A stretch of 64,000 nucleotides of DNA, taken from the NCBI GenBank assembly GCA_963664815.2, contig CAXXHB010000003.1, positions 3,328,001-3,392,000 of the forward strand, given 5' to 3'. The notes beneath the pieces were generated by a model. It had not been told where the DNA came from. It saw nothing but the letters and a program-made list of their open reading frames with translations, and ran no database searches. Shown here one piece after another: positions 25,667-44,174 of this stretch. The stretch is from Spirochaetota bacterium (GTDB lineage: Bacteria; Spirochaetota; UBA4802; UBA5550). The position numbers and the translations under genes were made by a program. Within the stretch, counting starts at the first letter, position 1; every line of letters starts with the position of its first letter.

Positions 25667-25781
25667 TATTTTTTAATCCTCCTCTTTGTGTTCTATATGT
25701 TTACTAAATGCCATCAACCGCTCGACGCTATCGCGCGATCACCCTCGCCCGGGCAAAGCCGTGGAGAAAGCATTTCATTTG

Positions 25782-26621: not shown

Positions 26622-26735
26622 TGTCTTCCTCTTAAATTTAAACTCAAAATTTCGGCCGGGTACCCCATTCCATTTTCTGACATGAAATACCCGACCAGGA
26701 GTTTTATGGGATAGAAAGAAAGCTTGATAATTTTG

Positions 26736-27095
26736 TTACCAGTGCCCCTCAACATTTGCAGTTGATGTAAGTTCCAGTTCACCTTTACTGTATTTATCAA
26801 GGGCTGTACCGACAGTTCCATCCTTAAACAGGTAAATTTTTACACCGGCGGCATTGAGCGTTGCAAATGCCTTCGGGCCGACATTCCCTGTAATTACCGC
26901 ATCCGCCCCCGCGTCAATTACAGTTTTTGCAGACTGAATACCCGCTCCCTGTGCCGCTTCGAGATTCTGTTTATTGTCAACATATACCGATTCATTTGAA
27001 TCCATGTCATAGATCAGAAAACCTTTCGCCCGCCCGAATCTCTGGTCAACTATTGCCGCAAGGTCCTTTTTATCTGTTGATACTGCTATTTTCAT
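26736..27095 (-). CDS. NifB/NifX (ORP-like) family protein
   Basis: MKIAVS, RFGRA, GAGIQ and GNVGPKA motifs, C-terminal ANVEGHW. Confidence 0.92.
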   Translation of the reverse strand: MKIAVSTDKKDLAAIVDQRFGRAKGFLIYDMDSNESVYVDNKQNLEAAQGAGIQSAKTVIDAGADAVITGNVGPKAFATLNAAGVKIYLFKDGTVGTALDKYSKGELELTSTANVEGHW

Positions 27096-27517
27096 ATAGC
27101 CTCCTTTTTATCATTTTCTGAGGTTTCCTTACCGCATACTGCACCTGAAATGAGTTTTCTTTTTCTCATCATCCCACCGCAGCTCCCTTTTTCGGGAAGA
27201 ACAGATTGCAGAGTATTGTTAAGGTACGATTTAATTACCTCGTCAACCGGGCCGCTGATCCATGGAATATGCTTTATACCTGTTTCGCTGATAATGTAGG
27301 ATAGATACCTGCTCACCGCACCGCTGATAATTACAGCGACACCTATCTCTTTCAGTTTCTGAATCCTCATTCTATCAGAATCTGCATTCAGATTGATCAC
27401 AATTCTCTGTGTGACCGCATTACCCTTAACCTCAAAGAGTACAAACCTCTCCGATACATCAAGCAGAGGGGATATACGTTCTTCAAATACCGGTATTGCA
27501 ATAAGTTTACTTTTCAT
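27092..27517 (-). CDS. NifB/NifX-like protein
   Basis: IAIPVFEERISPLLD, ISGAVS and WISGPVDEVI motifs. Confidence 0.8.
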   Translation of the reverse strand: MKSKLIAIPVFEERISPLLDVSERFVLFEVKGNAVTQRIVINLNADSDRMRIQKLKEIGVAVIISGAVSRYLSYIISETGIKHIPWISGPVDEVIKSYLNNTLQSVLPEKGSCGGMMRKRKLISGAVCGKETSENDKKEAI

Positions 27518-30436: not shown

Positions 30437-30613
30437 TTATTGACGAAATCGGCCCGATTGAACTTGAAGGTAAAGGGCGTCAAGCTGCACAGTCTCCTTC
30501 CCCTTCTCAATATCGAATACAACAATCTTGCCGACTCCTGCAAGCTGTGCCAGACCCTTCTGCTTTAAGCCGCTTTTTTTTCTGTGAAACAGAACCATTT
30601 CACCTATTTCCAT
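30437..30613 (-). pseudogene. XRE/HipB-like HTH protein, truncated (not in ORF track)
   Basis: My translation is MEIGEMVLFHRKKSGLKQKGLAQLAGVGKIVVFDIEKGKETVQLDAL..., 58 aa. The C-terminus is replaced by unrelated sequence. Confidence 0.65.
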
Positions 30614-30689
30614 TGTTGTTATAAATTACTGCTATAGCAGTAAATATTAATCTCCGGTAACTCTTGCTGATATTTTTATTGAAAAATTC

Positions 30690-30920
30690 CGGAAAATATA
30701 GGGAGATATATCTGAAAGATTATAAAGACGCTTCTTGTACGGTCAGGGAAATCGGCTCATATATAATGAAATACAGCGAGAAAAGACCTCATAGTTATCC
30801 TGATGGTAAAACACCGGAAAAGATATATAATGAGAGTATTTTGGTTCAAAAAAGAAATTGTAAAAACACATAAAAAACCTAGATTGATTGAATTTCCGGT
30901 CTGATAACAGGATCCGCTTA
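30690..30920 (+). mobile_element. IS3-family transposase 3' remnant
   Basis: REIYLKDY...IGSYIMKYSEKRPHSYPDGKTPEKIY matches the IS3 integrase C-terminal pattern YNxxRPHxxLxxxTP. Confidence 0.7.
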
Positions 30921-31222: not shown

Positions 31223-31468
31223 TTAAAGAATTTGTTGAAATATTTTTTCTTTAACCGTTTCAATCGAAAAATCTGTATAATAATGTCCATTTTTTGTTTT
31301 TTCCAGATATATAAATTTTGTATCACAATCTACCCGCATTATTTCTGTCCTTGATTCATGTTTAAACCTATGATTGATAATTGTTATTTTATCTTTACCC
31401 AAAACATCAGTATCTGAATCTATCATATTTCTTAGAGCATCTGCATAATTCTTGTCAATTTCCATCAT
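31223..31468 (-). CDS. Hypothetical protein
   Basis: 81 aa ORF with an AGGGAG RBS. An upstream TTGAAA-N16-TATAAT promoter is embedded in a hairpin at about 31517-31557. Confidence 0.65.
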   Translation of the reverse strand: MMEIDKNYADALRNMIDSDTDVLGKDKITIINHRFKHESRTEIMRVDCDTKFIYLEKTKNGHYYTDFSIETVKEKIFQQIL

Positions 31469-31566
31469 TGAGAACTCCCTTTATATTTATAATATTGTTT
31501 CTATAAATGCCATTATATACCCGGATTCAGTTTTTTCAAGTACCTGAACCCGGGTATGTTTAAATA

Positions 31567-31725
31567 TTATGATCTTGTTTTTTCATTAACTACAGTGCCG
31601 CATCTTGAGCATGTGTATGTATGACAGCTGTTGCAGGTTGTATAACCGCATTTTTTGCACCTGTAAACAAACTGTGTACTTGTGTTGAATTCTTTACCGC
31701 ATGAATCACAATATGCTTTTGCCAT
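31567..31725 (-). CDS. Small 4xCxxC zinc-finger protein (52 aa, not in ORF track)
   Basis: MAKAYCDSCGKEFNTSTQFVYRCKKCGYTTCNSCHTYTCSRCGTVVNEKTRS, with an AAGGAG RBS. Paralog at 40396. Confidence 0.8.
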   Translation of the reverse strand: MAKAYCDSCGKEFNTSTQFVYRCKKCGYTTCNSCHTYTCSRCGTVVNEKTRS

Positions 31726-31800
31726 AATATTCAGTTCTCCTTGTGTGTTAGTTGTTATTAAGTCTTAACGTGATCAGACAGCTTTACCTCCTTATGCAAG

Positions 31801-31830
31801 TAAAGAGCGCGGAAGTGAGGATTAATATCG
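31801..31830 (-). promoter_or_regulatory. Putative ECF-type promoter motif, copy 4
   Basis: Minus strand CGATATTAAT-cctcacttccgc-GCTCTTTA followed by AAGGAGG. Confidence 0.7.
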
Positions 31831-31952
31831 GGATTTTAAATTTTTTTATCAGAAGTGAAAATTTTTTGAGAAAATTACAACGACTAGGTGTCGTGATTCT
31901 GAAAATGTTATATTATCTAATAGTGACTTTAAATTTAATTTACGAGGTGCTG

Positions 31953-32162
31953 ATGAGCCAACAGTTTAAAACTCTAATGAATTATCAAAACGAAATGGAA
32001 CATATTGTTGGAAAAGTATTTGAAGCAAGAATTAACCGGTTTTGCCAAAAGCGTATTAGAGAAATTTATGATTACTGTAATACAGTAAGGGAGACAGCTT
32101 CTCCGAAAAATATCATGATAATTGATCAAATTGAAGGTATGATCTTTGATGTGATGCTTTAA
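31953..32162 (+). CDS. Small hypothetical protein (69 aa)
   Basis: GAGGTG RBS before ATG 31953. Convergent with the CHAT gene. Confidence 0.55.
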   Translation: MSQQFKTLMNYQNEMEHIVGKVFEARINRFCQKRIREIYDYCNTVRETASPKNIMIIDQIEGMIFDVML

Positions 32163-32164
32163 CC

Positions 32165-35119
32165 TTATTCATACAGCACAAATCCGGCCCAGTAATAAGG
32201 GTCGGATTTTTTAGTAATAAACTCATCTTTAGTCCTTTTAACAGCTTCACGGTATGAACATTTATCTTTCTGGACTTTACTATACATGCTTACCATAAAT
32301 TTCTTTGTGGCTTCATCATCAACTTCCCACAGGGTCACAAGTACACTGTTTGCCCCTGCAACCTGGAATCCCCGTGTTAATCCTGTAATCCCGTCCCCGC
32401 TTACAAATTTACCCATTCCTGTATTGCAGGCCGAAAGTACAACTATTTCAGCCTTAATATTGAGAACAGAAGCATCCTCAACTGTAAGATAACCGTCCTC
32501 TTCGCTGTCATTGATTAAGCCGGAAACTTCAGAGAACACAAGAGCAGAGTATAATGGATATTCCGGATTAAAGTACCCGTGACATGAAAAGTGTATAGAT
32601 TTATAATCAAGCAGTCTACCTTCAGCAGAAAGCTGCTTTAACTTCTTCTCTGTAACATCATGACCTGTGTATATATCGACACCGGAATTATTGAATATTT
32701 CTTTACCTATCTGTATTACTTCATCACCGGTTCCTGAAATATTATTCCATTTAAAACCGCACTCACTGAAATATTCAGAAGGCTTATTGAAACACCTCTC
32801 AGCAATTCGTTTATTATCTTCCTGTGGTAATAAATGATTACGGTATCTCCCTTTTGTCTCACCCTTTTTATCATCTTTGTCAGAATAAATGCCTCCGCCA
32901 AATGCCAGAAATTTCTTATCAATTGTGTAGTTACGATCGCGGATCATCACTGATACGGAAATAGATGGTGTGAAAGTGATTAACTTTTTATTAAGATAAT
33001 TACCATCTGCATCGCGAAGAGCATCAAAGGGTAGAAATGCCAGTGGACCGTCAGGAACGATTATCAGGTGGTTTTTATTTTTGATGTATTGCTGTACGGG
33101 ATTGATTAATGTATTGTAAAGATCTATTGAAAGCTTCTTAACAGTAAGTTCACTATAATCATAGCATGTGGTAATATCACTTGGATTGCATTTAGTAATC
33201 TCTTTTCTGAAATCATCAATTTTATCAGAATATAGATACTCCTTATCCAGCTCTATAACTTCTGTATCTTCCGCAGAGATTATAAGTATATACGGATTAA
33301 GATACTCCCCTTTTTGAGGTGGAATAATATATTCAAGTATTATACCATCGGTACCACAGAGTTCTTTTGCCTGTTCAATAGTTGCGATATCCGGATTACG
33401 CAGCTGCCTGTACTTTTCATTCGACATGAGGGAATTATCGAGGGCGATGAAATCGGATTCAGCCTGTGCGAGTTGGGATGATAAATTAGAGAGTCTTTTT
33501 TCATGATAATTTCTTTCTTCATCAGTCATTTCAAATATTGGTAATGATATAATTTTTTGCCTGATGGTTGATAGATGCTCAATATTATCTCGAAGATTCT
33601 GAAATTGCATAATGATGTCATTACTTATACCACAAGCATGAGCTGCTGATTTTATTGATAATCTTTCAGAATAACCCATTGAGCGCATGCGTTCTGAAAT
33701 ATTAAAAAATGTTCGTAAATCCTCAATTTCCTTAAATACGGTTAAAGTGTAATAAAAAGAAATAATATTACGTGTTATAAATAGAATTCCACCGGAAACA
33801 TCTGTTTTACGATTTTTTTCAATAACTTCAACAGCAGTTAGTATTATTGGCAAAGATTTATTGTAATACTTTTTATTAAGGTAGTTTGAACATATAATAT
33901 TTGAAATATTGATTATATCTTGATAAGCTGATGTTTCTTTTATTATTGTAAAGGATTTGTTTAAATATTCTAATCCTTTGTCAGTTGCTTCTATATCAAG
34001 GTATAACAATCCAAGCTGTAAAATAACATTAGCTGTTTCGGGATGATTATTACCGAATACTTTTTTATGTTTTTCTAAAGATTTTAAATAATAGTTTTCA
34101 GCCGTTTCATAGTTTTTCAGATTATAATAAGCACTACCTAAATAGAAATCGCTTCTGGATGTTTCTGGATGATATGCTTCATCCATTATTGTATTTACCT
34201 GTGAGCATAATTCGATTGTTTTATTAAAATCCATTTTTTCACAATATGCAAGACCAAGATTATTATAGATTTTAGATTTTAAATACTTTTTAAAATCCAA
34301 TTTGTTATTATCAATAATTTTGAGAGCTTCAGAATAAAATTCTATAGAATCAGTTATTTTCCCATTTTTATAAAAAGCAGCACCTAAGTTATTATAGCTT
34401 TTCACTAAAGGACTTAAATCTTTATCTGATCTTTTCTTTTTTATAGATAAGGCTTTATAAAAAAAATAAATTGACTGTTCTATGTTTCCTTCATCCTGAT
34501 ATATTGCACCTAATAAATCATAGATCCTATAATGAAGTATGCTATTTGAAATTTTTTTGCACTCAAGTTCTTTCAAAGCTTTCAGACAAAAATCAATAGA
34601 ACGGGATAAATTTGCCTTATTATAATAAACCAATCCTATATAATAATAACACGGTGCTTTTTTACTAATTTCATCATCATGTAAGCAATCTTCACAATGT
34701 AAGATTACATCTTCCCATAGCGATAGCGCTAATGAAATTTGACCAGTTTTATCTGCTTGATCAGCTAAATCTAATTTTTCATCAACCATATCACCATTAA
34801 ACTTTATAAAACTGGGTAAAGGAAAAACGGAATAATCATCATCGTCATAATATAGATATTTTGCTTTAACTTGATCTTTAGTTTCTTTAGTAAACTCAGC
34901 AATTGATTTGCTAAAAAATTTATTCAAAGCATCAGGTATAGGCATATTCGCTTTCTTAAAATGTTCATGTATAACTTTTTCAACAACCAATTTTATTGTC
35001 TCTCTTACTTCTCTATCACCGGATTCTTCAGCGGCTTGTATTATTTTTTTTAATTCATCTGAATCATTAATTTCATCAGATGAATTATGAGGATTATCGG
35101 GAGGATTATTCTGTGTCAT
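32165..35119 (-). CDS. TPR-CHAT (caspase-like) protease
   Basis: Multiple TPRs, IVPDGPLAFLPFDAL, catalytic His in IHFSCHG and Cys in VLSACNTG, TLWEVDD and PYYWAGFVLY. No signal peptide. Confidence 0.93.
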   Translation of the reverse strand: MTQNNPPDNPHNSSDEINDSDELKKIIQAAEESGDREVRETIKLVVEKVIHEHFKKANMPIPDALNKFFSKSIAEFTKETKDQVKAKYLYYDDDDYSVFPLPSFIKFNGDMVDEKLDLADQADKTGQISLALSLWEDVILHCEDCLHDDEISKKAPCYYYIGLVYYNKANLSRSIDFCLKALKELECKKISNSILHYRIYDLLGAIYQDEGNIEQSIYFFYKALSIKKKRSDKDLSPLVKSYNNLGAAFYKNGKITDSIEFYSEALKIIDNNKLDFKKYLKSKIYNNLGLAYCEKMDFNKTIELCSQVNTIMDEAYHPETSRSDFYLGSAYYNLKNYETAENYYLKSLEKHKKVFGNNHPETANVILQLGLLYLDIEATDKGLEYLNKSFTIIKETSAYQDIINISNIICSNYLNKKYYNKSLPIILTAVEVIEKNRKTDVSGGILFITRNIISFYYTLTVFKEIEDLRTFFNISERMRSMGYSERLSIKSAAHACGISNDIIMQFQNLRDNIEHLSTIRQKIISLPIFEMTDEERNYHEKRLSNLSSQLAQAESDFIALDNSLMSNEKYRQLRNPDIATIEQAKELCGTDGIILEYIIPPQKGEYLNPYILIISAEDTEVIELDKEYLYSDKIDDFRKEITKCNPSDITTCYDYSELTVKKLSIDLYNTLINPVQQYIKNKNHLIIVPDGPLAFLPFDALRDADGNYLNKKLITFTPSISVSVMIRDRNYTIDKKFLAFGGGIYSDKDDKKGETKGRYRNHLLPQEDNKRIAERCFNKPSEYFSECGFKWNNISGTGDEVIQIGKEIFNNSGVDIYTGHDVTEKKLKQLSAEGRLLDYKSIHFSCHGYFNPEYPLYSALVFSEVSGLINDSEEDGYLTVEDASVLNIKAEIVVLSACNTGMGKFVSGDGITGLTRGFQVAGANSVLVTLWEVDDEATKKFMVSMYSKVQKDKCSYREAVKRTKDEFITKKSDPYYWAGFVLYE

Positions 35120-35143
35120 TGAAGCGTATTAATCTTAAAGAAG

Positions 35144-35854
35144 TTAATTCAATGAAATAGCCCGGAAATATTCACCATCTGCAGAAAGAATATACTCCCC
35201 TTTATCCGGTACCTTGAATTCAATAGAACCATTGACCGGATTACCCGATTGAGCATAACCGTTGCCAGTTATAAAGAATTCTTTCAACTGGTCATCACAT
35301 TGTATAATAATTTTAATCGATTCATCTTCATGTTTTATAATACAATTATATTCTTTATCCCCTGCGGCAAATTTAAATGGAATTTCTTTATAAGTTTTAT
35401 CCTTGGCAACACCACCTTTTGTAGTTCCTGCCGCAACACCGATCAACCCTTCTGGTGATGATAAAAGATTTATTATTTTTAATGTATTAACCAGGTCTTC
35501 CTTAACCGATGCAAGAACACCCTGTACACCCTTTTCAGTGGATTCAATTATCTCTTTAATGGATGGTTTAGAAGCAACAAGCTCCTTCAGTCGAGCAAAT
35601 GCGGCTTTACTCTTTCTGTTTTTTTCAGCTATCTCTGCAACCAGTGGAGCAAATCTCTCTGCTGCTTTCTTTGCAAATTCAGCACCCTCTTCACTTTCGA
35701 ACCAGGGGATATCTTCGATCTTATGTTCTTTCAAGTATTTGTCGAGTTTTTCATAATCATCACTATACATTTCGGCAGCGGACTCACCAAAATATTTTAC
35801 TATTACAAGATCAGCAGAAGTCAGTTTATTTTTATTAGTCATTGGTTTCTCCAT
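35144..35854 (-). CDS. Putative cytoplasmic anti-sigma factor / protease substrate
   Basis: Lies between the sigma and CHAT genes. Helical N-terminal half, flexible GVAAGTTKGG linker and small beta-rich C-domain. The function is a positional inference. Confidence 0.5.
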   Translation of the reverse strand: MEKPMTNKNKLTSADLVIVKYFGESAAEMYSDDYEKLDKYLKEHKIEDIPWFESEEGAEFAKKAAERFAPLVAEIAEKNRKSKAAFARLKELVASKPSIKEIIESTEKGVQGVLASVKEDLVNTLKIINLLSSPEGLIGVAAGTTKGGVAKDKTYKEIPFKFAAGDKEYNCIIKHEDESIKIIIQCDDQLKEFFITGNGYAQSGNPVNGSIEFKVPDKGEYILSADGEYFRAISLN

Positions 35855-35862
35855 AATTTATC

Positions 35863-36507
35863 TTACACAAGATCTTCTTTTTTAATACCTTTATTCTCAA
35901 GACAGGCTTTAACTAATTTTTTGCCTAAGCTGCGGCCGTCTTTTACAAGTTCTGTTTCAACATTTAATTGCTGGGCAATAATTGCCGGACGGACACCACG
36001 CATTATTTCTGCCATAATATATGAAAGATCTATATTGTTATCTTTTGGCAAACGCTCAATACAATCTATCAACGATTCTTTGAGTTCTGCTTCGGGATGG
36101 TTGCCGTTTGTTTTCTCCAAAGCATCATGTACTTCTTTTTCGTTTTCATCTTTTATTTCATCAGAATTATGCAAAGGTTCATTTTTATTAATATGTTTTC
36201 GTAACTCGCTTCTTAAAACAAGATATAAATAGTTTACAGCCTGGCCTTCATGTTCCCCTGTAAAATTGGTTCTAAGCATTTTGAGAAAAACTTCTATTGT
36301 ACTGAAGATAACATCGTCAATGTCGTCCGGATTAAAATAAGTAATATCAAACTCTCTTAAAGATTTTATCAATTTTGCCTTTAATAAACCGTAAGATTTA
36401 TTATAAAACTTTTCACCTGCTTTTCTATCAGGATTTTCACCGTTACGCAATTTTAAACAGTATTGAATAATCTCCATTGACTTATCCCCATATTTTAATT
36501 TCTCCAT
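35863..36507 (-). CDS. ECF-like sigma70 factor (true start possibly 36477)
   Basis: Region 2-like DDIDDVIFSTIEVFLK...NYLYLVLRS and region 4-like CIERLP...IIAQQLNVETELVKDGRSLGKKLVKACL. Confidence 0.75.
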   Translation of the reverse strand: MEKLKYGDKSMEIIQYCLKLRNGENPDRKAGEKFYNKSYGLLKAKLIKSLREFDITYFNPDDIDDVIFSTIEVFLKMLRTNFTGEHEGQAVNYLYLVLRSELRKHINKNEPLHNSDEIKDENEKEVHDALEKTNGNHPEAELKESLIDCIERLPKDNNIDLSYIMAEIMRGVRPAIIAQQLNVETELVKDGRSLGKKLVKACLENKGIKKEDLV

Positions 36508-36594
36508 TAAAATAGATAATATTCAATAAAAGTCAAGGCTTTAACTTCCTCTCTCTTGTTATTTTGGAAAACAGAAAAGTAAATTTAAAAAATC

Positions 36595-36623
36595 TGATAT
36601 TAATATCCTCTTCCAGCTCTCCT
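36595..36623 (+). promoter_or_regulatory. Putative ECF-type promoter motif, copy 1
   Basis: TGATATTAAT-N11-GCTCTCCT, then AAGGAGG and ATG 36647. Confidence 0.7.
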
Positions 36624-36646
36624 CAATTAAAGAAAAGGAGGATACC

Positions 36647-36802
36647 ATGGAAAACTTAATCAGAAACTTCACTACGAAAAAAGTAGAACGTGCAGACATT
36701 ATTCTCGCACAACTTGCCGAAATATACTCTGCAGTCGATTCATGCAATCTATCAAACGGTAAAATTATCTGCCGCAGGCTCGAAATAATAAAAAAATTAT
36801 AA
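36647..36802 (+). CDS. Small hypothetical protein (51 aa, not in ORF track), paralog of the C-terminal half of the 36864 protein
   Basis: MENLIRNFTTKKVERADIILAQLAEIYSAVDSCNLSNGKIICRRLEIIKKL, with a strong RBS. Confidence 0.7.
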   Translation: MENLIRNFTTKKVERADIILAQLAEIYSAVDSCNLSNGKIICRRLEIIKKL

Positions 36803-36808
36803 TTTCGG

Positions 36809-36838
36809 TGATATTAATCCGGGGCAAAACGCTCTCTT
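36809..36838 (+). promoter_or_regulatory. Putative ECF-type promoter motif, copy 2
   Basis: TGATATTAAT-N12-GCTCTCTT upstream of ATG 36864. Confidence 0.72.
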
Positions 36839-36863
36839 CTAATAAAAGGAAAAGAAGAATAAT

Positions 36864-37160
36864 ATGAAAAAGTTAATCTATTCTTTTGAAGGTAACGATC
36901 TAAGACATTATGCCGGTGTGGCCAAACAATACGATTTTCTTGATGAAAGGTCAAGGCATTTTCTCTATAACATAGGTTCTCTTCTTTATCTCAAGGAGAA
37001 TGGAGAATCAATTAATTTATCAAATAAACAGGAAAACTGGACAGATTCACTTCTTACTCAACTCACCTCGGAATTTTCAATAGTCGATAGCTGCTGTCTT
37101 TCAAAAAGCAAGGCTCACTGCAGCAGATGCGAAAAATTAAAAAATATTTCAGCGTTGTGA
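36864..37160 (+). CDS. Hypothetical protein with a C-terminal Cys cluster
   Basis: 98 aa with VDSCCLSKSKAHCSRC. Confidence 0.7.
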   Translation: MKKLIYSFEGNDLRHYAGVAKQYDFLDERSRHFLYNIGSLLYLKENGESINLSNKQENWTDSLLTQLTSEFSIVDSCCLSKSKAHCSRCEKLKNISAL

Positions 37161-37187
37161 TATTAATTCGCGATTAATTGCTCTCTT
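37158..37187 (+). promoter_or_regulatory. Putative ECF-type promoter motif, copy 3
   Basis: TGATATTAAT-N12-GCTCTCTT, then AGGAGG and ATG 37209. Confidence 0.72.
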
Positions 37188-37208
37188 AAAAGTAAAGAGG
37201 AGGATGAC

Positions 37209-37544
37209 ATGATAAACAACTTCAACAGCATCAACCGTAAACCCCGGTTTGCTTTTGCTTTAGCAAAAAAATACAATCGCCTAAGCAATGGGGCAGGCTG
37301 CCTGCTTTATGACAGAGTAAAGTATCTTCATGAAGATCTGAAGAACCAGCCTCTCATCTTTAAAGAAATACATCTCAACGCGGCAGCAAAGCTTGACCTT
37401 ATCAGTGAAAGCGAAGGGTTCCTTATCTTTTACAGTGCGATGTTTATGTATGAGGAAGATAAATATCATCCAGTGTTCAGGCCATTGCCTTTAAACGGGA
37501 GAAGATCCTTTATGCTCGACCCTGATTATTTCAATCAGAAATGA
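37209..37544 (+). CDS. Hypothetical protein
   Basis: 111 aa with an AGGAGG RBS. Confidence 0.7.
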   Translation: MINNFNSINRKPRFAFALAKKYNRLSNGAGCLLYDRVKYLHEDLKNQPLIFKEIHLNAAAKLDLISESEGFLIFYSAMFMYEEDKYHPVFRPLPLNGRRSFMLDPDYFNQK

Positions 37545-37572
37545 CACCATAAAATTATAAGGAGGCAGGTAT

Positions 37573-37884
37573 ATGAAGCATAATTCAAAATCCGGTCTTT
37601 ATTCAATACACGGTTTTGAAAGATCGATTGAGCGTGAGATAAGCGATAATGAGATACACTTTGTATTGAGGTATGGTGAAGTATATGAAACCAGATGCGG
37701 ACGCCTGGCGTTCTGGTTTAACAAAGATTCTGCTGACAGGTGCCCGCTGCCATGGTCAGCTAAAAAGAATGCATTTTATGTTGCAGTGATACAGGCCTCA
37801 GACGGCGTTGTAGTTACTACAATGTTCACCCCTGTTAAAAAGCAGGAGTGGCAATCACCTTCAGATTTATACAGGATAGCATAA
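37573..37884 (+). CDS. DUF4258-like (BrnT/RelE-like) putative RNase toxin
   Basis: SIHGFERSIEREISDNEIHFVLRYGE...VVVTTM matches the H-x2-ER-x2-ER-x-I...GE...VVT pattern. Confidence 0.6.
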   Translation: MKHNSKSGLYSIHGFERSIEREISDNEIHFVLRYGEVYETRCGRLAFWFNKDSADRCPLPWSAKKNAFYVAVIQASDGVVVTTMFTPVKKQEWQSPSDLYRIA

Positions 37885-38174
37885 TGCAGATAAATAATAA
37901 ATCGATAAAAGCAGATAGCAATTCCATTGATGATGACGGCTACTCACCTTCGGAGAAGCTTGATCACATCGCAGGTGTTTTTCATGAGCAGATTGATGAT
38001 ATAGTCATGCAGTTAAATCAGAATATGATGGTTGATGAAGACCTTTTACCCTTCAACCTGCTCAGGAGGGTCATACTTATGACAATCAATGTTTATGGAT
38101 TTGAAGATGTAAATATTGCAATAGATACGTTTCTCGAAGAGGCTCTCTCTTACGCAGAGCAGACAATACAATAA
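37884..38174 (+). CDS. Acidic hypothetical protein, paralog of the 42698 protein
   Basis: Its ATG overlaps the upstream TAA (translational coupling). Shares an LPF..L...D...I.T block with 42698. Confidence 0.65.
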   Translation: MQINNKSIKADSNSIDDDGYSPSEKLDHIAGVFHEQIDDIVMQLNQNMMVDEDLLPFNLLRRVILMTINVYGFEDVNIAIDTFLEEALSYAEQTIQ

Positions 38175-38187
38175 CAGGAGTTAAAGC

Positions 38188-38955
38188 ATGAGTAAAAAAG
38201 ACGAAATTTACACAGGCGAAACAAAAAAAGGTAAACGCAATGGCTTCGGCAGGTGTGATTATGCCGACGGCTCATGGTATGCCGGAGAGTGGAAGAATGG
38301 TAAAAAACATGGTCAGGGTTGTGAGATAAACAAAAGCGGCATAAGCTATATGGGAAGATATACTGATGGCGAGTACGACAGCTTCGGCACGCTTTTCCCT
38401 GTTCCGGGGAATAAAGATCAGGTACTTACATCCGGTCAATTCAGTAAAGAAGCTTTTAATGGTATAGGCCTGGTCTTAAACGAGCATGGCGGGCCGTCAT
38501 ACGCAGGACAGCTTATAGAATCAGGAATGTCAGGAATCGGGTGCTGGTATCATCCGAACGGAACTGTCATAGCTGGTGAAAATAAAGACACAAAAAGCAC
38601 TGCTGTTTCCCTCGAAATATATGCCGATGGTTCGCACAGCCTGCGTCATTATCTCAACGGCATATTGCATGGCGATGTAATTAACTGGTCCCCTGACGGC
38701 ACAAGGACAGTCTGTAAGTTTGCCGAAGGTGAGCAACAGGGACCGTGCGAGATATTCAAGCACGACGGTACAATAATTGTCGCATTGTCAGACCATAAAG
38801 GTTTTCAGGGAGAGGTCATGTTTATTTACAGCGACGGTTACAACGTGAAAAAGAACTATAAAGACGACAGGCCCTTCGGTGATGTTATTGTTACCGGACC
38901 TGATGGCACTTCGGTTACAATCAGTCAGAAAGAGGCAAAAAGGAGGGGAATATGA
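38188..38955 (+). CDS. MORN-repeat protein
   Basis: YTGETKKGKRNGFG, YAGEWKNGKKHGQG and further degenerate repeats. Confidence 0.88.
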   Translation: MSKKDEIYTGETKKGKRNGFGRCDYADGSWYAGEWKNGKKHGQGCEINKSGISYMGRYTDGEYDSFGTLFPVPGNKDQVLTSGQFSKEAFNGIGLVLNEHGGPSYAGQLIESGMSGIGCWYHPNGTVIAGENKDTKSTAVSLEIYADGSHSLRHYLNGILHGDVINWSPDGTRTVCKFAEGEQQGPCEIFKHDGTIIVALSDHKGFQGEVMFIYSDGYNVKKNYKDDRPFGDVIVTGPDGTSVTISQKEAKRRGI

Positions 38956-40373
38956 ACCTTATTCAGAAACTTATAAGAAAAAAGCCAGAAAAGTGGTACA
39001 ACAGGGAGAATATACCTGCAATTGAAAATGCGCTGAACACTGCAATTGACAGGTATTACGATCTTGACTTCCATTTCAGAAATCCCCTGACGCCAATGAG
39101 TGAACACTTCCTGGGCTGCGGATACTACGATTTCTATGTTCTTGGAGCGACTTTCCCAAAAGAAGTGGATATATTTCTGGCCCGTATTTTTGAAAAGATA
39201 ATTAAGAAGAATTACACGCCATGCAATGAAGAGATCATGAAATATCTGAAAGGTAAAATAGGTCAAACCGGTTTTACAAAAACGTTCTCTGATTACATTA
39301 ACAAGATGATCGGGTTTAACTATAAGTGTTTCAGTTCAGATCAGGGTGAACTGACTGATTATATCGGTTCAGGTAATTTTTTTATAAAGAACAGCAGGGG
39401 AGATAAAATTGTAATCTCGATCATGAATAATCAAATCCCTGATAATCAGAACAGGGGTGGTGTGCTGAATATAAATCTTACAGCTAACAGCTCGGTAGAA
39501 GGTGCACGCGAGGCATGCTGCGAGTTTATAGATCTTGTAAACAGGGAGCTTGGTACAGAGATACAAGGGAGCCAATATGCCATGGGCGCAAGAGGCTATC
39601 CTGTTCGTGTCGGTTTCCAGTCCTGGGATGATATTAAAATACCCGAAGAACTGAAAAAAATGTTAAGATTCCATATTACAGATTTTATTTCTCATATCGA
39701 CAGATTTAAAGATGCAGGAATAAGACCCTCAAGAGGGATTATAATTTCCGGATCTCCCGGAACCGGCAAAACAATGCTCGGCAGAGTGTTATGCTCAAAT
39801 ATCAATATACCCTTTTTCTATGCCGTTGCCGGAGATTTCCAGCAGACGTTCGGCGGCCCGAAGATTGAAGAGTTGTATAATACAGCTTCTATTTATGCTC
39901 CTTCAATTGTATTTATTGAAGATGCGGACATATTTCTTCAGAAACGGCTCTTCAATAATAACAGCGGTACACTGACAGATTTTTTAAATATTATCGACGG
40001 TTTAAAAGAAAATAAGGGTGTGATAACAATCCTCACATGCAACAATCCAGAACTTATCGATGAGGCAGTAAAAAACAGACCGAAACGTTTCGATGTAATC
40101 ATCGAATTTCCCAACCCTGCACTTGAACAAAGAGTAGATATTCTCATGTCAAAACTTGAAAAACATATAGAAAGTACAGATGTTTTACATCTTGTGGATG
40201 CCGCTGTTAAGATGGAGGGGTTTTCCGGAGCCCATCTTGCAGAGTTTGCAGAGCGGCTTATCATGTCAAAGATATATGCGGATAAACCGTTTATAGATTG
40301 GGAGATCATATTCACAGAGCTTGAAAGTTTCGGATTCAGGAAACCTACAGCGCAACAGATCGGTATCAGGTAA
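38952..40373 (+). CDS. AAA+ ATPase
   Basis: GSPGTGKT Walker A, VFIEDAD Walker B (ED order) and TCNNPELIDEAVKNRPKRFD second region of homology. Confidence 0.9.
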   Translation: MNLIQKLIRKKPEKWYNRENIPAIENALNTAIDRYYDLDFHFRNPLTPMSEHFLGCGYYDFYVLGATFPKEVDIFLARIFEKIIKKNYTPCNEEIMKYLKGKIGQTGFTKTFSDYINKMIGFNYKCFSSDQGELTDYIGSGNFFIKNSRGDKIVISIMNNQIPDNQNRGGVLNINLTANSSVEGAREACCEFIDLVNRELGTEIQGSQYAMGARGYPVRVGFQSWDDIKIPEELKKMLRFHITDFISHIDRFKDAGIRPSRGIIISGSPGTGKTMLGRVLCSNINIPFFYAVAGDFQQTFGGPKIEELYNTASIYAPSIVFIEDADIFLQKRLFNNNSGTLTDFLNIIDGLKENKGVITILTCNNPELIDEAVKNRPKRFDVIIEFPNPALEQRVDILMSKLEKHIESTDVLHLVDAAVKMEGFSGAHLAEFAERLIMSKIYADKPFIDWEIIFTELESFGFRKPTAQQIGIR

Positions 40374-40395
40374 AAAATAAAATGAGGATAATATT

Positions 40396-40563
40396 ATGAA
40401 TAAAAATAAAATGATATGCAGCAAATGCGGTGATAAATGCGGTACACATGCTTTCGCATACTTTTGTCCTGAATGCGGCAAACAGTTGTGCGGTTCATGC
40501 CATACAAATGCATTTTGTACCGACTGTTGGCCAGTCGGTGTAAAAATGATCAAAGTAAGCTAA
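40396..40563 (+). CDS. Small 4xCxxC zinc-finger protein (55 aa, not in ORF track)
   Basis: MNKNKMICSKCGDKCGTHAFAYFCPECGKQLCGSCHTNAFCTDCWPVGVKMIKVS, with a GAGGA RBS. Its stop codon abuts the next RBS. Confidence 0.8.
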   Translation: MNKNKMICSKCGDKCGTHAFAYFCPECGKQLCGSCHTNAFCTDCWPVGVKMIKVS

Positions 40564-40574
40564 AGGAGGATTGG

Positions 40575-41993
40575 ATGAATTTTAAAACGAAAATGAAATC
40601 ATGGAACAGCAATATCCTTCAGGCAGAGAAATTACCGGCTGTCGATAATGCCTTAAAGAAAGCCGTGGAACATAATTATGACTTATTTGAATATCTTTTT
40701 ACAACTGATACAAGACTGTTCCAATACTATCTTGGATGCGCATCACATGAGATATATATACTCGATGTAGAGATTGAAAAAGGTACTGATATAATTTTTG
40801 CATCATTGATAGATGAAGTCATTAAAGAAAACTACAAATGCAATAACAATCTTGTAAAAGAGCACCTGGAGTCATGGATTGGTACAGAGGGATTCCAGAG
40901 ATATGATTATGACAGGTACCTGAAGAATATAGGTTTCAATCATTCAAGCCTGTCGTCAGGTGATGGTGAGTTTATACATTACATTTCTGCCGGCAACTGT
41001 TTTCTTGAAGATTCTAATGGTACAAGATTTGGAATTCATATACCGAAGTTTCAAATGACATTCGGTATTATGGGTTGCGGTTTTAAAATGTCGATTCTTG
41101 CAGATGGAAATACTCCTGATGTCCGGGTTTTATGTTCGGAATTTATAAGCAGTTTATACGTCCATCTGAATAATATTATTAAAAAGAAATCCTATGCCCT
41201 TAATCCGAAATGTATTTCAGTTCCGATTGAATCTATTTCATGGGATAAACTTAAAATACCGGCAGAACTCAAGAGAGACATAGATTTTCATATTACCAGT
41301 TTCATCTCGCATATTAATGAATTCAAAAAAGCAGGCATCAGGGCATCGCGTGGCATAATCATAGTGGGCCCTCCGGGAAACGGTAAAACTATGCTTACAA
41401 AAATTCTGTGTACTAATATTGAAGTTGCATTCTTTTATGCCAAACCAAATGACTTCTCGAATAATTATGGTGAACCCGGCATTGAAGATCTCTACAGAAC
41501 TGCTTCGAAGAATACACCTGCAATTGTTCTCATTGAAGATGCGGATATTTATCTGCAGAGCCGCACATTCAATTCCAATGGGGGGAAATTAAGCGAGTTC
41601 CTTAATATAATAGACGGTATCAACGATAACAACGGGATTATAACGATCCTCACATGCAACAATCCGGAACTCCTTGATGAAGCAGTCAGAAACAGGCCCA
41701 AGAGGTTCGATGTGATCATTGAGTTCCCGAATCCAGCGCTGGAACAGCGGAAAGAGATACTCTTTGATAAACTGAAGAAGCATCTTTCTACAGGTGACAT
41801 ATCCCTTATAGATGAAGCCGCTGAAAAGTTTGAGGGATTCTCCGGAGCACATATATGCGAGTTTGCGGAAAGACTTATCATGTCCAGGATCTACAGTGGC
41901 AAGAAGTGTATAGATCGTGATATATTCGACGAAGAAATCGAAAAATTCGGCTTTTCACCATCCGGAAAGAAAGGGAAAGCCGGTATCAGTTAA
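40575..41993 (+). CDS. AAA+ ATPase, tandem paralog
   Basis: AAGGAGG before ATG 40575 gives 472 aa, matching the 473 aa paralog. GPPGNGKT, VLIEDAD and NRPKRFD motifs. Confidence 0.9.
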   Translation: MNFKTKMKSWNSNILQAEKLPAVDNALKKAVEHNYDLFEYLFTTDTRLFQYYLGCASHEIYILDVEIEKGTDIIFASLIDEVIKENYKCNNNLVKEHLESWIGTEGFQRYDYDRYLKNIGFNHSSLSSGDGEFIHYISAGNCFLEDSNGTRFGIHIPKFQMTFGIMGCGFKMSILADGNTPDVRVLCSEFISSLYVHLNNIIKKKSYALNPKCISVPIESISWDKLKIPAELKRDIDFHITSFISHINEFKKAGIRASRGIIIVGPPGNGKTMLTKILCTNIEVAFFYAKPNDFSNNYGEPGIEDLYRTASKNTPAIVLIEDADIYLQSRTFNSNGGKLSEFLNIIDGINDNNGIITILTCNNPELLDEAVRNRPKRFDVIIEFPNPALEQRKEILFDKLKKHLSTGDISLIDEAAEKFEGFSGAHICEFAERLIMSRIYSGKKCIDRDIFDEEIEKFGFSPSGKKGKAGIS

Positions 41994-42087
41994 TTAACAG
42001 CTTCACCCGCTGAGCCTGGCACATTAACAATCTGTAAAAAACCGGGAATAGATATAACTTTAAAAAATTATTTATAAGGAGAATAAA

Positions 42088-42405
42088 ATGAAACACCTGA
42101 TGAGCATAACAGCAGCAGTAATCTTATCACTCCCGCTTTACGCGGAAACGTTACACGGCATTTCTGTATATACACGTAATGGATGCAGCAGATGCGTGTA
42201 CACGATAAATTATCTTAAAAATCATAATATCCCACATGTGGAATATCCGATTGAAGAAGAGAAAAATTACAACAGCCTGTGTGAAATAATAAGCAGATCG
42301 GGAAAACAAACTAATGGGATAATCAGTACACCTGTAATAATCAAAGATGGTGCTGTTTATTTTAACATAGAAAATCTTGAAACATTCCTTGAATCATTGA
42401 AGTAA
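42088..42405 (+). CDS. Exported glutaredoxin-like protein
   Basis: Signal peptide, YTRNGCSRC (CxxC) and the cis-Pro motif STPVI. Confidence 0.8.
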   Translation: MKHLMSITAAVILSLPLYAETLHGISVYTRNGCSRCVYTINYLKNHNIPHVEYPIEEEKNYNSLCEIISRSGKQTNGIISTPVIIKDGAVYFNIENLETFLESLK

Positions 42406-42450
42406 AGAACAGAGTTCTTTAAAAATAAACCGGTTAAAAGGAAGTACAGG

Positions 42451-42624
42451 ATGAATACCAAACGGATAATTATTGAACAGATCGAAGGTGAAAAAAGCAG
42501 CCCTGAAAAATCAAATTTTGATTCGTTCAGTGACGGATTTTCCCGGGGATTCTCACTGAAGAGTGCGGTATTTATGGCTCTTGTTATGATGATGATTGTT
42601 TTACTGCTGGTTATGATTTTGTGA
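42451..42624 (+). CDS. Small tail-anchored membrane protein (57 aa, not in ORF track)
   Basis: MNTKRIIIEQ...AVFMALVMMMIVLLLVMIL with an upstream purine-rich RBS-like stretch. Confidence 0.55.
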   Translation: MNTKRIIIEQIEGEKSSPEKSNFDSFSDGFSRGFSLKSAVFMALVMMMIVLLLVMIL

Positions 42625-42697
42625 AGACCGGCAGATAAGTATTTATTGCAGGGACTATGTTCACCATGAATTTAAAAACAGCTAAAAGGAGATTGCT

Positions 42698-43000
42698 ATG
42701 AATAAAAATTACTACAGTCTTGAAGGAAAGTGCATAACAGAAAGGAAGGAACTGTTTGAATCGGATCCTAAGACATATATATACAGTGCTCTGCATGAAA
42801 TCATTAACAGTTCGTTTGAACTTGTGGAGGCTCATGAGGATGAACTTGATGTTGCTTTTTATGAAGCTTTGCCTTTTGAGGTTCTCACACAGCTGTTGAA
42901 CTATATGTCGGGGATATTTGACCTCAATGATATATTTGATCATATCGAGACCATGGAAAAGCTGCTGCGGGAACAGGTGCAGTTAAGAAAAATTCAGTAA
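42698..43000 (+). CDS. Acidic hypothetical protein, paralog of the 37884 protein
   Basis: AAGGAG RBS, 100 aa. Confidence 0.7.
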   Translation: MNKNYYSLEGKCITERKELFESDPKTYIYSALHEIINSSFELVEAHEDELDVAFYEALPFEVLTQLLNYMSGIFDLNDIFDHIETMEKLLREQVQLRKIQ

Positions 43001-43016
43001 TACAGGTTAACCAGTA

Positions 43017-43154
43017 ATGAGAACTAACAGACCGGATATAGCAAAAGCGGCAGGTATGATCACAGGAGCAATAATTTTTTTCTTTGTTGTGAAATTTATT
43101 GCCATCTTTTCCGGAATTCTGGTTCTGCTGATCCTTTTTCTGAAAAGAATCTAG
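43017..43154 (+). CDS. Small hydrophobic protein (45 aa, not in ORF track)
   Basis: MRTNRPDIAKAAGMITGAIIFFFVVKFIAIFSGILVLLILFLKRI. Confidence 0.5.
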   Translation: MRTNRPDIAKAAGMITGAIIFFFVVKFIAIFSGILVLLILFLKRI

Positions 43155-43184
43155 GGATAAAAAATATTATTAGGGAAGTACAGA

Positions 43185-43439
43185 ATGGATGATAAATTCA
43201 AAATTAAATACCATGATTCACTGAGAGAATATTATAACAATGATGAAAAGCGCCTGACACATGAAAAGGCTGATAAACGTGCAAGGATATCTAACAGCAT
43301 GGGTTATTTTACGGGTAAGTTTATTTCAGGGTACATTATAGGTTATATTATAGGGATCATACTCGCTTTCTTGTTTATTTGGTACTGTATTGTAAATCCA
43401 TTGATCATTCCAATTGTTAAAATAATCTTTGGAAGGTGA
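43185..43439 (+). CDS. Small membrane protein
   Basis: C-terminal GxxxG-rich TM segment (GYFTGKFISGYIIGYIIGII). Confidence 0.65.
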   Translation: MDDKFKIKYHDSLREYYNNDEKRLTHEKADKRARISNSMGYFTGKFISGYIIGYIIGIILAFLFIWYCIVNPLIIPIVKIIFGR

Positions 43440-43702
43440 TTATGTGCAGAACAATAAAGGAATTTCTGTCTTTTACGGTAAAACTTCTGGTTGTTGTTTT
43501 CATCTTTGCATGGCTTGAGGAAATACTTAACAGGCTGATCAACTTCATTGTGAGAATATGGAAAACGAGAGGGCATGATCCGCGTGAACTTAAAGCGGAA
43601 AATATGGAAAAGTATTATATGAAACATGGAGTCCAGTGCAGCAGCTGTCTGTATTGGATTCCTGAAGGACTTGATACATGCCCCGTATGCGGGAATAAGT
43701 AA
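43436..43702 (+). CDS. Small membrane protein with a C-terminal zinc ribbon
   Basis: TM segment plus CSSC...CPVCG. Confidence 0.65.
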   Translation: MIMCRTIKEFLSFTVKLLVVVFIFAWLEEILNRLINFIVRIWKTRGHDPRELKAENMEKYYMKHGVQCSSCLYWIPEGLDTCPVCGNK

Positions 43703-43850: not shown

Positions 43851-43853
43851 ATG

Positions 43854-43926
43854 CAGGCCACGAAGGACTCGAACCTTCAACACTCGGTTTTGGAGACCGA
43901 TGCTCTACCAATTGAACTAGTGACCT
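43854..43926 (-). tRNA. trnW: tRNA-Trp (CCA); 3' CCA end not encoded
   Basis: Cloverleaf with AGGTCAC/GTGGCCT acceptor stem, TCGGT-CTCCAAA-ACCGA anticodon arm and GAAGG-TTCGAGT-CCTTC T arm. Confidence 0.97.
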
Positions 43927-44174
43927 ATTTCCTGACACAAAATATCAGCACATAAAAAACGTCAAGTATTTTAATACACCCTTCTCCCTGAATCAGCCAT
44001 GTATATTTTATACGGCACCTCTGAAGCAGTGCCCCGGTTTTCTTAAAATCCCCCTGCCATCGGCCACCCCTTTTGATAAAAAATGGGACGCTGGCCAGAC
44101 AAAACGGGGCAATTTACATCTATTTTAACTATAAGCAGCTTTGATATCCGGCGTCTCATTACATGGTTATAAAA

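Follow-up and report, generated by a model that had tools for sequence, protein, structure and literature searches.

A candidate CRISPR-independent, protease-gated sigma switch with a local regulon in a Spirochaetota genome

The 64,000-nucleotide stretch analysed here (the window; contig CAXXHB010000003.1 of the Spirochaetota assembly GCA_963664815.2, positions 3,328,001 to 3,392,000) carries a minus-strand operon of three genes, for a divergent sigma factor of the extracytoplasmic function (ECF) type, a candidate soluble anti-sigma and a caspase-like TPR-CHAT protease, flanked by transcription units that are headed by a common bipartite motif. With somewhat better than even confidence, we read this locus as a CRISPR-independent, Craspase-like proteolytic sigma switch, in which the protease would cut the anti-sigma and free the sigma factor. 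The regulon, as judged from the genes around the operon, would probably consist of about 20 neighbouring genes switched on by this sigma factor. In CRISPR type III immunity, sigma factors set free by a protease are emerging as one arm of the output, as in Craspase and CalpL. To our knowledge, the regulons of such sigma factors are mostly unknown and the studied cases are all CRISPR- or cyclic-nucleotide-dependent. The present locus would offer a compact example, readable from its sequence, with a stand-alone TPR-CHAT, a small soluble anti-sigma with a handle domain, a near-orphan sigma, four promoters and a regulon of about 20 genes.

The operon and its three products are the following.
32165 to 36507, minus strand: sigma, anti-sigma and protease operon, three tightly packed genes for soluble proteins
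35863 to 36507, minus strand: divergent ECF-type sigma factor, open reading frame of 214 residues, recognised by sub-threshold profile matches and fold
35144 to 35854, minus strand: candidate soluble anti-sigma, open reading frame of 236 residues, following the sigma gene; C-terminal domain common to zf-HC2 and zinc anti-sigma (ZAS) proteins
32165 to 35119, minus strand: TPR-CHAT caspase-like protease, 984 residues; PF12770, TPR families, His847 and Cys898

The original prediction had described a tight three-gene operon, and the three open reading frames were indeed found there, with 8 nucleotides between the sigma stop and the start of the 236-residue frame (20 if the Met5 start of the homologues is used) and 24 nucleotides between the stop of the latter and the start of the CHAT gene. 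The true start of the sigma factor is probably Met11 at 36477, giving 204 residues, because its homologues begin there; likewise the anti-sigma probably starts at 35842, giving 232 residues, because its homologues begin at Met5. There is no transmembrane-like or signal-like segment in any of the three proteins and the N-terminus of the CHAT protein is strongly hydrophilic, so that the whole module appears to be cytoplasmic, in agreement with the cytoplasmic location that had been claimed for the protease.

The CHAT family (PF12770) was matched by residues 666–983 of the 984-residue protein at E = 2.4e-56 (191.7 bits, cut-off 24), and TPR families span approximately residues 150–400 in the Pfam scan. 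The motifs IHFSCHG, with His847, and LSAC, with Cys898, are invariant in all three proteins aligned, namely this protein and its two nearest relatives, which bears out the intact His/Cys pair expected earlier; these two residues we take to be the catalytic dyad of CHAT proteases. When the CHAT protein was compared with the PDB by phmmer, only TPR proteins were matched. A distant relative of the protease, P0053 with 1594 residues, combines MORN repeats, TPR and CHAT in one chain and is a fused form of the MORN and TPR-CHAT proteins that the window locus encodes separately.

The label of an ECF-like sigma for the first gene of the operon needed support, because Pfam is silent on the protein. PHROG 1740, "RNA polymerase sigma factor", matches the 214-residue protein at E = 5e-6. 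An AlphaFold (AF2) model from a 5-row alignment, with a predicted local distance difference test score (pLDDT) of 74, has two helical domains and a disordered linker at 101–127, and the Foldseek list obtained with it is headed by ECF sigmas, the best being sigmaE/RseA (1or7_A, E = 3.6e-3, probability 1.00); no entry reached E ≤ 0.001. Residues 1–106 were superposed on region 2 of sigmaE (4lup_A; Z 10.5, root mean square deviation 2.9, 91/91) and residues 127–200 on region 4 (2h27_D; Z 9.7, root mean square deviation 2.0, 68/69), Z values of a kind that comes easily to helical models. The predicted two-domain fold, sigma2 plus sigma4 without region 1 or 3, fits ECF group 4. The profile of the sigma family gave 0 matches to PDB sequences. 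Close relatives are few: two were found in a word search of 5.8 billion proteins, and the profile gave four matches at E ≤ 0.001 among 1.84 billion representatives, three of them real. An 894-residue repeat protein matched by the sigma search (P0010) was found to be spurious on reading its sequence. By sequence similarity, the sigma factor is a near-orphan lineage. The family profile finds sigma-like genes in ten other loci, and among these profile-linked sigmas that of L022 passes the Pfam ECF model PF07638 (29.3 bits, cut-off 21.1) and that of L043 passes Sigma70_r2 and r4_2. Invariant columns of the sigma alignment cluster at residues 77–98 and 150–172. From the profiles and the modelled fold, we take the 214-residue protein to be a strongly derived ECF-type sigma; the earlier label stands as far as the fold, TIGR02937 and PHROG 1740 are concerned, and falls short at the family thresholds given below.

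No curated family in the libraries searched names the 236-residue protein. In each of the ten loci matched by the sigma profile (10/10), a relative of this protein is encoded by the next gene downstream. The AF2 model (overall pLDDT 50) consists of a helical N-terminal half, a disordered stretch at 125–150 and a beta-sandwich at 152–230, the last of which is confident, with block means of 66 to 88. Foldseek on the 232-residue model returned generic beta-sandwiches only (best CBM56, E = 7e-3), a profile of the 232-residue family had 0 matches among PDB sequences at E ≤ 10, and the Atlas leads were Spirochaetota hypothetical proteins, with a zf-HC2 cluster at 0.87. More was learned from an alignment of 15 members, that is, the family members with the common C-terminal beta domain. 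In 11 of the 15, a zinc anti-sigma motif, C...HxxxCxxC, lies near the N-terminus before the beta domain, and in L019 PF13490 (zf-HC2) is over its cut-off. L018 represents an intermediate form, because the zinc motif and a long helical insert occur together in it. In four further loci (L021, L022, L047 and L048), the sigma is paired with a protein of 146–178 residues that is homologous to the N-terminal part only and lacks the beta domain. Within the linker, one Gly of an xGL(I/V) island (around residues 128–136 of the 232-residue form) is invariant in 8/8 members of a closer alignment, and this island, the sole conserved one in the stretch predicted to be disordered, may be the site of cutting or of recognition. 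The protein is best read as a soluble anti-sigma that has a sigma-binding module at its N-terminus and an added C-terminal sandwich, and its sequence places it in an order-restricted anti-sigma family in which the clade of the window has lost the zinc motif. A complex prediction for the sigma factor with the 232-residue protein scored 0.58 and one control 0.48, values that weigh on neither side as regards binding.

The proposed relationship between protease and anti-sigma is drawn from their genomic association. Within the DNA fetched, a CHAT-family gene is present in 10 of the 15 loci with a beta-domain anti-sigma, in varying gene orders and orientations: the window, L017a, L017b (L046 with L017 51–2873), L018, L041, L043, L044, L038, L040 and L045. 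These proteases fall into two clades. The first is made up of the window protein, the protein at L017 12293–15169 and that of L018 (32–37% identity to the window protein). In the second, the protease part is 37–41% identical between TPR-fused proteins (L017 51–2873 and L041) and those that carry a CARF domain at the N-terminus (L043, L044, L038, L040 and L045). One anti-sigma family beside CHATs that differ in order, clade and sensor is the pattern expected of a protease/substrate pair, which is not the same as proof. BLASTP with six CHAT queries found no CHAT in the four loci where the anti-sigma is without the beta domain; present there instead are an AAA_5 ATPase and a protein whose length ranges from 850 to about 1240 residues.

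These four loci (L021 7241–10260, L022 9814–15519, L047 148–7196 and L048 9707–16407) form a second conserved module with the same sigma family, in which the sigma and the short anti-sigma are divergent from the AAA_5 (MoxR/McrB-like) ATPase of 554–591 residues; the accompanying unannotated protein has approximately 1220–1240 residues (850 in L022). In L041 (3544–6294, minus strand), TPR-CHAT comes first, followed by the sigma, the anti-sigma and a 916-residue protein whose metallopeptidase domain is of the M20/M28 type, which adds another protease to the operon.

The CARF-CHAT proteins, of 528–566 residues, were located as follows.
L040, 7176 to 8780, minus strand: CARF-CHAT protein
L038, 3648 to 5234, plus strand: CARF-CHAT protein
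L043, 1473 to 3173, minus strand: CARF-CHAT protein
L044, 6006 to 7616, plus strand: CARF-CHAT protein
L045, 9818 to 11443, plus strand: CARF-CHAT protein

Among them, the Pfam CHAT model is passed by the L043 protein only (33.8 bits), and the others were assigned by full-length homology to it (31–74%) and by the conserved GH and SxC motifs. Each of the five genes has as neighbours an ECF sigma and a zinc anti-sigma carrying the common C-terminal beta domain. In L040, the CARF-CHAT, the ECF sigma (TIGR02937, 90 bits) and the anti-sigma lie amid cas1, two cas2, csx20 and a TM1812-type CARF gene, and the neighbourhood of L038 is similar (cas1, cas2, csx20 and a TM1812-type CARF gene). By their gene content, these loci look like a CHAT/anti-sigma/sigma switch gated by cyclic oligoadenylate (cOA). 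The CARF loci and the TPR loci would thus constitute a natural domain-swap series bearing on CHAT activation and sigma targets.

The second line of evidence is the motif GATATTAAT-N11-12-GCTCT, which occurs four times in the window, each time before a flanking transcription unit. With the pattern GATATTAAT-N{10,16}-GCTCTY, four matches were counted in the window, for 0.00 expected in 100 shuffles. The four copies are listed below.
31803 to 31829, minus strand: motif P1, 77 nucleotides before the Zn-ribbon gene
36596 to 36621, plus strand: motif P2, 25 nucleotides before the 51-residue gene
36810 to 36836, plus strand: motif P3, 27 nucleotides before the 98-residue gene
37159 to 37185, plus strand: motif P4, 23 nucleotides before the 111-residue gene; heads the 13-gene run

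It had been stated that all flanking units begin with this motif. This holds for four units, namely the Zn-ribbon gene with the 81-residue gene, the 51-residue gene, the 98-residue gene and the 13-gene run; in the last, the motif is found at the head only. In each case an A-rich stretch precedes the motif, and a Shine-Dalgarno sequence and a start codon follow it. Two loci allow comparison: L008, a locus on a metagenome contig obtained in a metagenome scan, and L020, from a short contig of a congeneric genome. In an alignment of the window copies with those of L008 (two) and L020 (one), the GATATTAAT and GCTCT blocks did not vary, and the copies in L008 and L020 precede orthologous genes. In the whole genome of 5.2 Mb (3 contigs, 96% complete), the exact pattern has five matches, four of them in the locus (reversed-pattern control, 0), and with one mismatch allowed there are eight, again four in the locus (control, 2). 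Outside the locus, the fifth exact site and three of the four mismatch sites were inspected (all except C2:656309). The fifth exact match has a longer spacer and lies at the junction of two open reading frames; this site and two of the mismatch sites are inside or at the junction of open reading frames, and the mismatch site C3:619311 is intergenic with no same-strand frame of at least 80 residues downstream. Among the sites inspected, there is no convincing copy of the motif elsewhere in the genome.

A related element was noted in L018, where CCGATAWT-N14-18-GTCTW occurs three times within 600 bp (9299–9873) around the sigma-like gene and a divergent DUF4258-like gene; the sigma-like gene itself has a copy there, unlike in the window, which suggests autoregulation. 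Nothing convincing emerged when L017 and L019 were searched for motifs in common, and the count made over all loci with a loose form of the motif admitted too much to be of use.

Ahead of the sigma operon stands a different type of element.
36509 to 36536, minus strand: sigma-70-like promoter candidate, TTGACT-16-TATTTT, before the sigma operon; weak evidence

It matches at 9 of 12 positions, in a scan that showed no enrichment over shuffles, and TTGACT was seen by eye at the same place in L008. From the missing bipartite motif and the presence of this weak sigma-70-like candidate, it was deduced that the sensor module is probably expressed constitutively from a housekeeping-type promoter.

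The genes of the flanking units, which would make up the regulon, are the following.
31567 to 31725, minus strand: Cys-rich zinc-ribbon microprotein, 52 residues; weak Zn-ribbon/C1 matches only
31223 to 31468, minus strand: 81-residue protein of no family; in the P1 unit with the Zn-ribbon gene, downstream of the protease gene
36647 to 36802, plus strand: 51-residue protein resembling the C-terminal half of the 98-residue family; P2 unit
36864 to 37160, plus strand: 98-residue Cys-rich protein, kept in L008 (69%) and L020 (59%); P3 unit
37209 to 43702, plus strand: 13-gene run, P4 unit, with the members below
37209 to 37544, plus strand: 111-residue protein of no family
37573 to 37884, plus strand: DUF4258-like protein, 103 residues; sub-threshold match of 23.2 bits (cut-off 25); recurs in L018, L019 and L020
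37848 to 38174, plus strand: partner frame of the DUF4258-like gene, about 96–108 residues; 64% identical in L020
38188 to 38955, plus strand: MORN-repeat protein, 255 residues; 37.5 bits (cut-off 22.5)
38952 to 40373, plus strand: classic-clade AAA+ ATPase 1, 473 residues; PF00004, FtsH/PAN/CDC48-like core; PADLOC IetA at E = 7e-19
40473 to 41993, plus strand: classic-clade AAA+ ATPase 2, 506 residues; PF00004, paralogue of ATPase 1
42088 to 42405, plus strand: glutaredoxin-like protein with a hydrophobic N-terminus; 25.8 bits (cut-off 22.9)
42451 to 43702, plus strand: five small genes, for products of 57 (transmembrane), 100, 45 (transmembrane), 84 (transmembrane) and 88 (transmembrane) residues

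Most of the product names given in the original prediction were retained, since the MORN, the two AAA (PF00004) and the glutaredoxin matches are over their cut-offs and four of the small proteins have transmembrane segments; for the DUF4258-like protein, a match exists and is sub-threshold. The 88-residue membrane protein ends in a zinc-ribbon-like CxxC...CxxC, and the 100-residue protein is soluble. For the N-terminal half of ATPase 1, no family was matched and an Atlas look-up gave nothing above 0.9. A homologue of the 52-residue Zn-ribbon protein sits between the two AAA genes in L008, which keeps the order of all five small genes. In L019, a DUF4258-like gene and relatives of the 84- and 88-residue membrane proteins follow the sigma/anti-sigma pair, and in L018 a DUF4258-like gene diverges from the pair. 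A further candidate gene, of 69 residues (31953–32162, plus strand), is situated between motif P1 and the protease gene and converges with the latter; it has a Shine-Dalgarno-like GAGGTG and no family was matched.

The conservation of this arrangement was examined in L008 and L020. L008 keeps the sigma, the anti-sigma, the start of the TPR gene, the MORN gene, both AAA genes and the five small genes, most flanking genes being in order at 52–71% identity, and L020 keeps the part of the gene order that its short contig covers. Gene order and motif recur in both, and co-occurrence of these genes, by which the original prediction could be judged, was found.

The mechanism that we propose for the locus is as follows. 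The sigma factor, the anti-sigma and the protease would be made constitutively from the housekeeping-type promoter, and the 232-residue protein would hold its private sigma inactive through the helical N-terminal part, while its C-terminal beta-sandwich and the conserved linker would serve as handle and cut site for the TPR-CHAT. A signal, most plausibly a protein and possibly one of phage, would be sensed through the TPR/middle region of the protease and would activate the His847/Cys898 site; the anti-sigma would then be cut in the linker and the sigma freed. RNA polymerase with the freed sigma would start at the four GATATTAAT-N11-12-GCTCT promoters (P1–P4), the firing of which would express approximately 20 local genes, for the Cys-rich microproteins, the DUF4258-like protein and its partner, the MORN protein, the two AAA+ ATPases, the glutaredoxin-like protein and four small membrane proteins. 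Sequence and comparison establish the components, how they are linked, and the motif. Binding, cleavage, the signal, the dependence of the promoters on the sigma factor and the biological role are deduced by analogy with known systems and from gene neighbourhoods. Of the cascade that had been put forward earlier, the architecture (sigma, anti-sigma, cytoplasmic TPR-CHAT, motif, local regulon and no CRISPR) was upheld by comparison, and its mechanistic core stays an inference. If the proposal is true, the locus would be a portable, orthogonal, protease-gated transcription switch.

Several points weigh against this proposal and are best considered together. In the case of the sigma factor, Pfam gave no match to the 214-residue protein even at E ≤ 10, and the NCBIfam model TIGR02937 (sigma70-ECF) matches residues 63–190 at E = 6.4e-7 with 29.1 bits, under its cut-off of 42.9. 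The sigma of the window is only 34% identical to that of L008 though the motif is unchanged, which fits only if the residues that contact DNA are the conserved ones. Many ECF sigmas autoregulate, yet the sigma operon has no copy of the motif in front of it, and the count of the related element in L018 is illustrative only because the pattern was derived from the same three sequences. As regards the anti-sigma, its N-terminal half was modelled at pLDDT under 50, and the zinc ligands are absent in the window protein, L008, L020 and L017a, in which a longer helical insert is found instead. TPR-CHAT proteins are very common, 710 of them being found at E ≤ 1e-20 among 8000 scored, and their co-location with the anti-sigma could instead mean a co-regulated effector. 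No CHAT was seen in 5 of the 15 beta-domain loci; in L008 the third gene begins with TPR repeats and then the contig ends, for L020, L039 and L042 the contig stops no more than a few hundred bases from the sigma/anti-sigma pair, and in L019 the 9 kb on one side are free of CHAT, the contig ending 0.85 kb past the sigma on the other. Finally, PADLOC-DB 2.0 recognised no known system among 18 locus proteins; only the two AAA proteins (IetA/TRIP13-like, approximately 1e-19 to 1e-7) and the TPR part were matched, and the matches to the AAA proteins are generic in kind.

As to the role of the switch, defence or abortive infection is held at nearly even confidence, with doubt slightly ahead. Such a role was favoured on account of the CRISPR-embedded sister loci, the patchy distribution, the island-like setting and a cargo that is toxin-like and includes small membrane proteins. 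The same mechanism could instead belong to a developmental switch, or to a response to stress or protein damage in the cytoplasm, and would then induce AAA+ unfoldases, a thiol oxidoreductase and membrane proteins. The largest products of the regulon, the FtsH/PAN/CDC48-like ATPases, would suit this, as would the glutaredoxin-like protein, the absence of a PADLOC system and the fact that neither a relative in the viral contigs scanned nor an integrase was found. We regard it as possible and distinctly less probable than not, given that sister loci of the anti-sigma family use CARF-CHAT among cas genes, that the distribution is patchy, that the region is low in G+C and flanked by tRNA-Trp on one side and by a transposase remnant on the other, and that DUF4258-like genes and small membrane proteins recur in several such regulons. 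A more far-reaching version of the defence reading is that the TPR-CHAT would act as an innate sensor, free of CRISPR, for an invader or damage protein, and that its sole job would be to cut the dedicated soluble anti-sigma and thereby start a private abortive-infection regulon, made up of two AAA+ unfoldases, a MORN protein, a DUF4258-like toxin and small membrane proteins. In sister genomes, the chassis of protease, anti-sigma and sigma occurs with a CARF sensor within type III CRISPR loci, and on this view cOA-sensing and protein-sensing heads would be interchangeable on a single proteolytic sigma switch. We consider this doubtful; if true, the interchangeable heads would bridge adaptive, CRISPR-signalled and innate transcriptional immunity.

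A second alternative concerns the mechanism itself. The sigma, the anti-sigma and the regulon could be real while the TPR-CHAT is not the trigger, release being caused by a redox or partner-switching cue and the protease being a co-expressed effector or scaffold that would cut other substrates, for example regulon products or invader proteins. The beta-domain loci L019, L020, L039 and L042, which show no CHAT in the DNA examined, would be accounted for in this way. Moreover, relatives of the anti-sigma keep a zinc anti-sigma motif of a kind that is redox-sensitive in other systems, according to the accessible part of PMC11506125, and the SAVED-CHAT of Haliangium cuts a second protease and not the sigma or the inhibitor directly, according to the accessible part of 10.1101/2023.06.23.546230. 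Against this stand the CHATs of two clades, with two sensor kinds and in differing orders, in 10 of the 15 loci, and the lack of CHAT in the four loci whose anti-sigma has no beta domain; in the clade of the window, loss of the zinc ligands removes the obvious alternative input. We therefore judge it unlikely. Very improbable is the remaining alternative, that the motif is an operator for another DNA-binding protein or a transcript element and that the 214-residue protein is not its reader or not a working sigma: the sub-threshold profiles and predicted fold behind the sigma assignment (helical folds get middling Z values easily) and the divergence of the sigma to 34% beside an unchanged motif would allow it, and it is opposed by the bipartite form of the motif with its fixed spacing, A-rich upstream stretch, promoter distance and constant orientation with the downstream gene, by its occurrence in 5.2 Mb essentially only beside this sigma gene, and by the related motif that L018 has beside its own sigma-like gene.

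The preferred reading, a sigma factor released by proteolysis, was compared with known systems. In type III-E CRISPR, the N-terminal domain of Csx30 binds CASP-sigma, full-length Csx30 inhibits it and Csx29 cuts a loop of Csx30, as described in the accessible part of PMC10028731. The window shares with this system a soluble TPR-CHAT, a soluble sigma inhibitor with a C-terminal domain and in-locus sigma promoters, binding and cleavage being transferred here by analogy. The Csx29 model NF041237 reaches 25.4 bits with the window protease, far from its cut-off of 300, and in the C-terminal CHAT part only; the sigma gives no match to the type III-E sigma model, Csx30 has 565 residues compared with the 232 of the window anti-sigma, and there is no Csx31 at the locus. 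Because none of the family thresholds tested for the Csx29/Csx30/CASP-sigma set was reached, the resemblance is one of logic and not of membership. Unlike type III-E, the window genome has neither Cas7-11/RAMP nor a nearby CRISPR, and since it lacks Cas7-11, the activating signal cannot be a target RNA bound by that protein.

CalpL-CalpT-CalpS is a type III CRISPR set of a SAVED-Lon protease, an anti-sigma and an ECF-like sigma, as presented in the accessible part of 10.1101/2024.05.08.593097, and is alike in its three-part switch of sensor-protease, anti-sigma and sigma. CalpL is a Lon protease with a SAVED sensor for cyclic tetra-adenylate (cA4), whereas the window encodes a CHAT with TPR and no Lon-SAVED, and the genome has no cyclase or Cas10. 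In Myxococcus xanthus, DdvA is a single transmembrane protein with a periplasmic TPR-CHAT and an incomplete active site (PMC11506125, accessible part). DdvA-DdvS, as covered there, has in common with the window an ECF sigma, a zinc anti-sigma domain (seen here in the window protein's relatives), a TPR-CHAT module and a defence regulon of local genes; in the window, protease and anti-sigma are separate soluble proteins without transmembrane segments, and the regulon contains no CBASS or CRISPR genes. In Haliangium ochraceum, a SAVED-CHAT cuts a second caspase (PCaspase), which cuts PCc-sigma and PCi (10.1101/2023.06.23.546230, accessible part). A CHAT-family protease with a sensor domain adjoins a sigma in a defence context in that report as well, and the window differs from it by having no second caspase, no kinase and no SAVED domain. 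CHAT-domain genes also lie near ECF54 sigmas, and ECF54 is described as being without an anti-sigma in the accessible part of PMC8999054; the genetic linkage of an ECF sigma to CHAT-domain proteins is common to both, and the window locus has an anti-sigma candidate and is all cytoplasmic. By analogy, the all-cytoplasmic form with a soluble anti-sigma is closer to Craspase. Within the literature searched (most subscription journals and supplements being outside the search), neither a soluble TPR-CHAT/anti-sigma/sigma module outside CRISPR nor the term "CARF-CHAT" was encountered.

The claim that the window holds no cas gene or CRISPR array was confirmed, none having been found and no array-like repeats being present. 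In the genome, no RAMP match (PF03787) and no Cas10 above cut-off were obtained, and the single Cas1 lies 2.3 Mb from the locus. As far as gene content tells, the locus is CRISPR-independent and the genome is without type III CRISPR genes.

Of 61 related genomes, 9 have the anti-sigma family, one of these 9 being the genome of the window; among the other genomes, it is present in 1/7 of the genus and 5/36 of the family. In a phylum-wide sample, 15 of 401 genomes have it, all of one order, and the source names of the homologues point to Spirochaetota. Pattern scans of genome contigs with the anti-sigma and sigma alignments confirmed no relative, and none was seen in the viral contigs scanned. 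The locus lies in a stretch with a G+C content of 0.32–0.36, compared with about 0.40–0.44 nearby, between a sigma-54 activator gene (28083–29393) and tRNA-Trp/purF (43853–45632), and its setting looks island-like. At the left edge are a fragment of a helix-turn-helix regulator gene (30437–30613) and a transposase remnant of 69 residues (30664–30873), and at the right edge is tRNA-Trp (43853–43926). A test for att-type repeats found no copy of at least 13 nucleotides from the tRNA-Trp region at the left flank. A clean empty insertion site was not found: over the 20 kb compared, the sigma-54 activator gene is all that the congeneric complete genome G006 has in common with the window.

Elsewhere in the window, two pairs of paralogues were noted, namely two phospholipase A1 genes (PF02253; 4202–5116 and 20015–20905, both minus strand) and two sigma-54 activator genes (1883–3193, plus strand, and 28083–29393, minus strand), which are about 40–42% identical in a translated comparison. 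A cluster at 20909–27517 on the minus strand encodes two Nitro_FeMo-Co (NifX/NifB-type) proteins, three P-loop proteins of the ParA/CbiA type that have 4Fe-4S motifs, one radical-SAM protein and one protein of the metallo-beta-lactamase fold.

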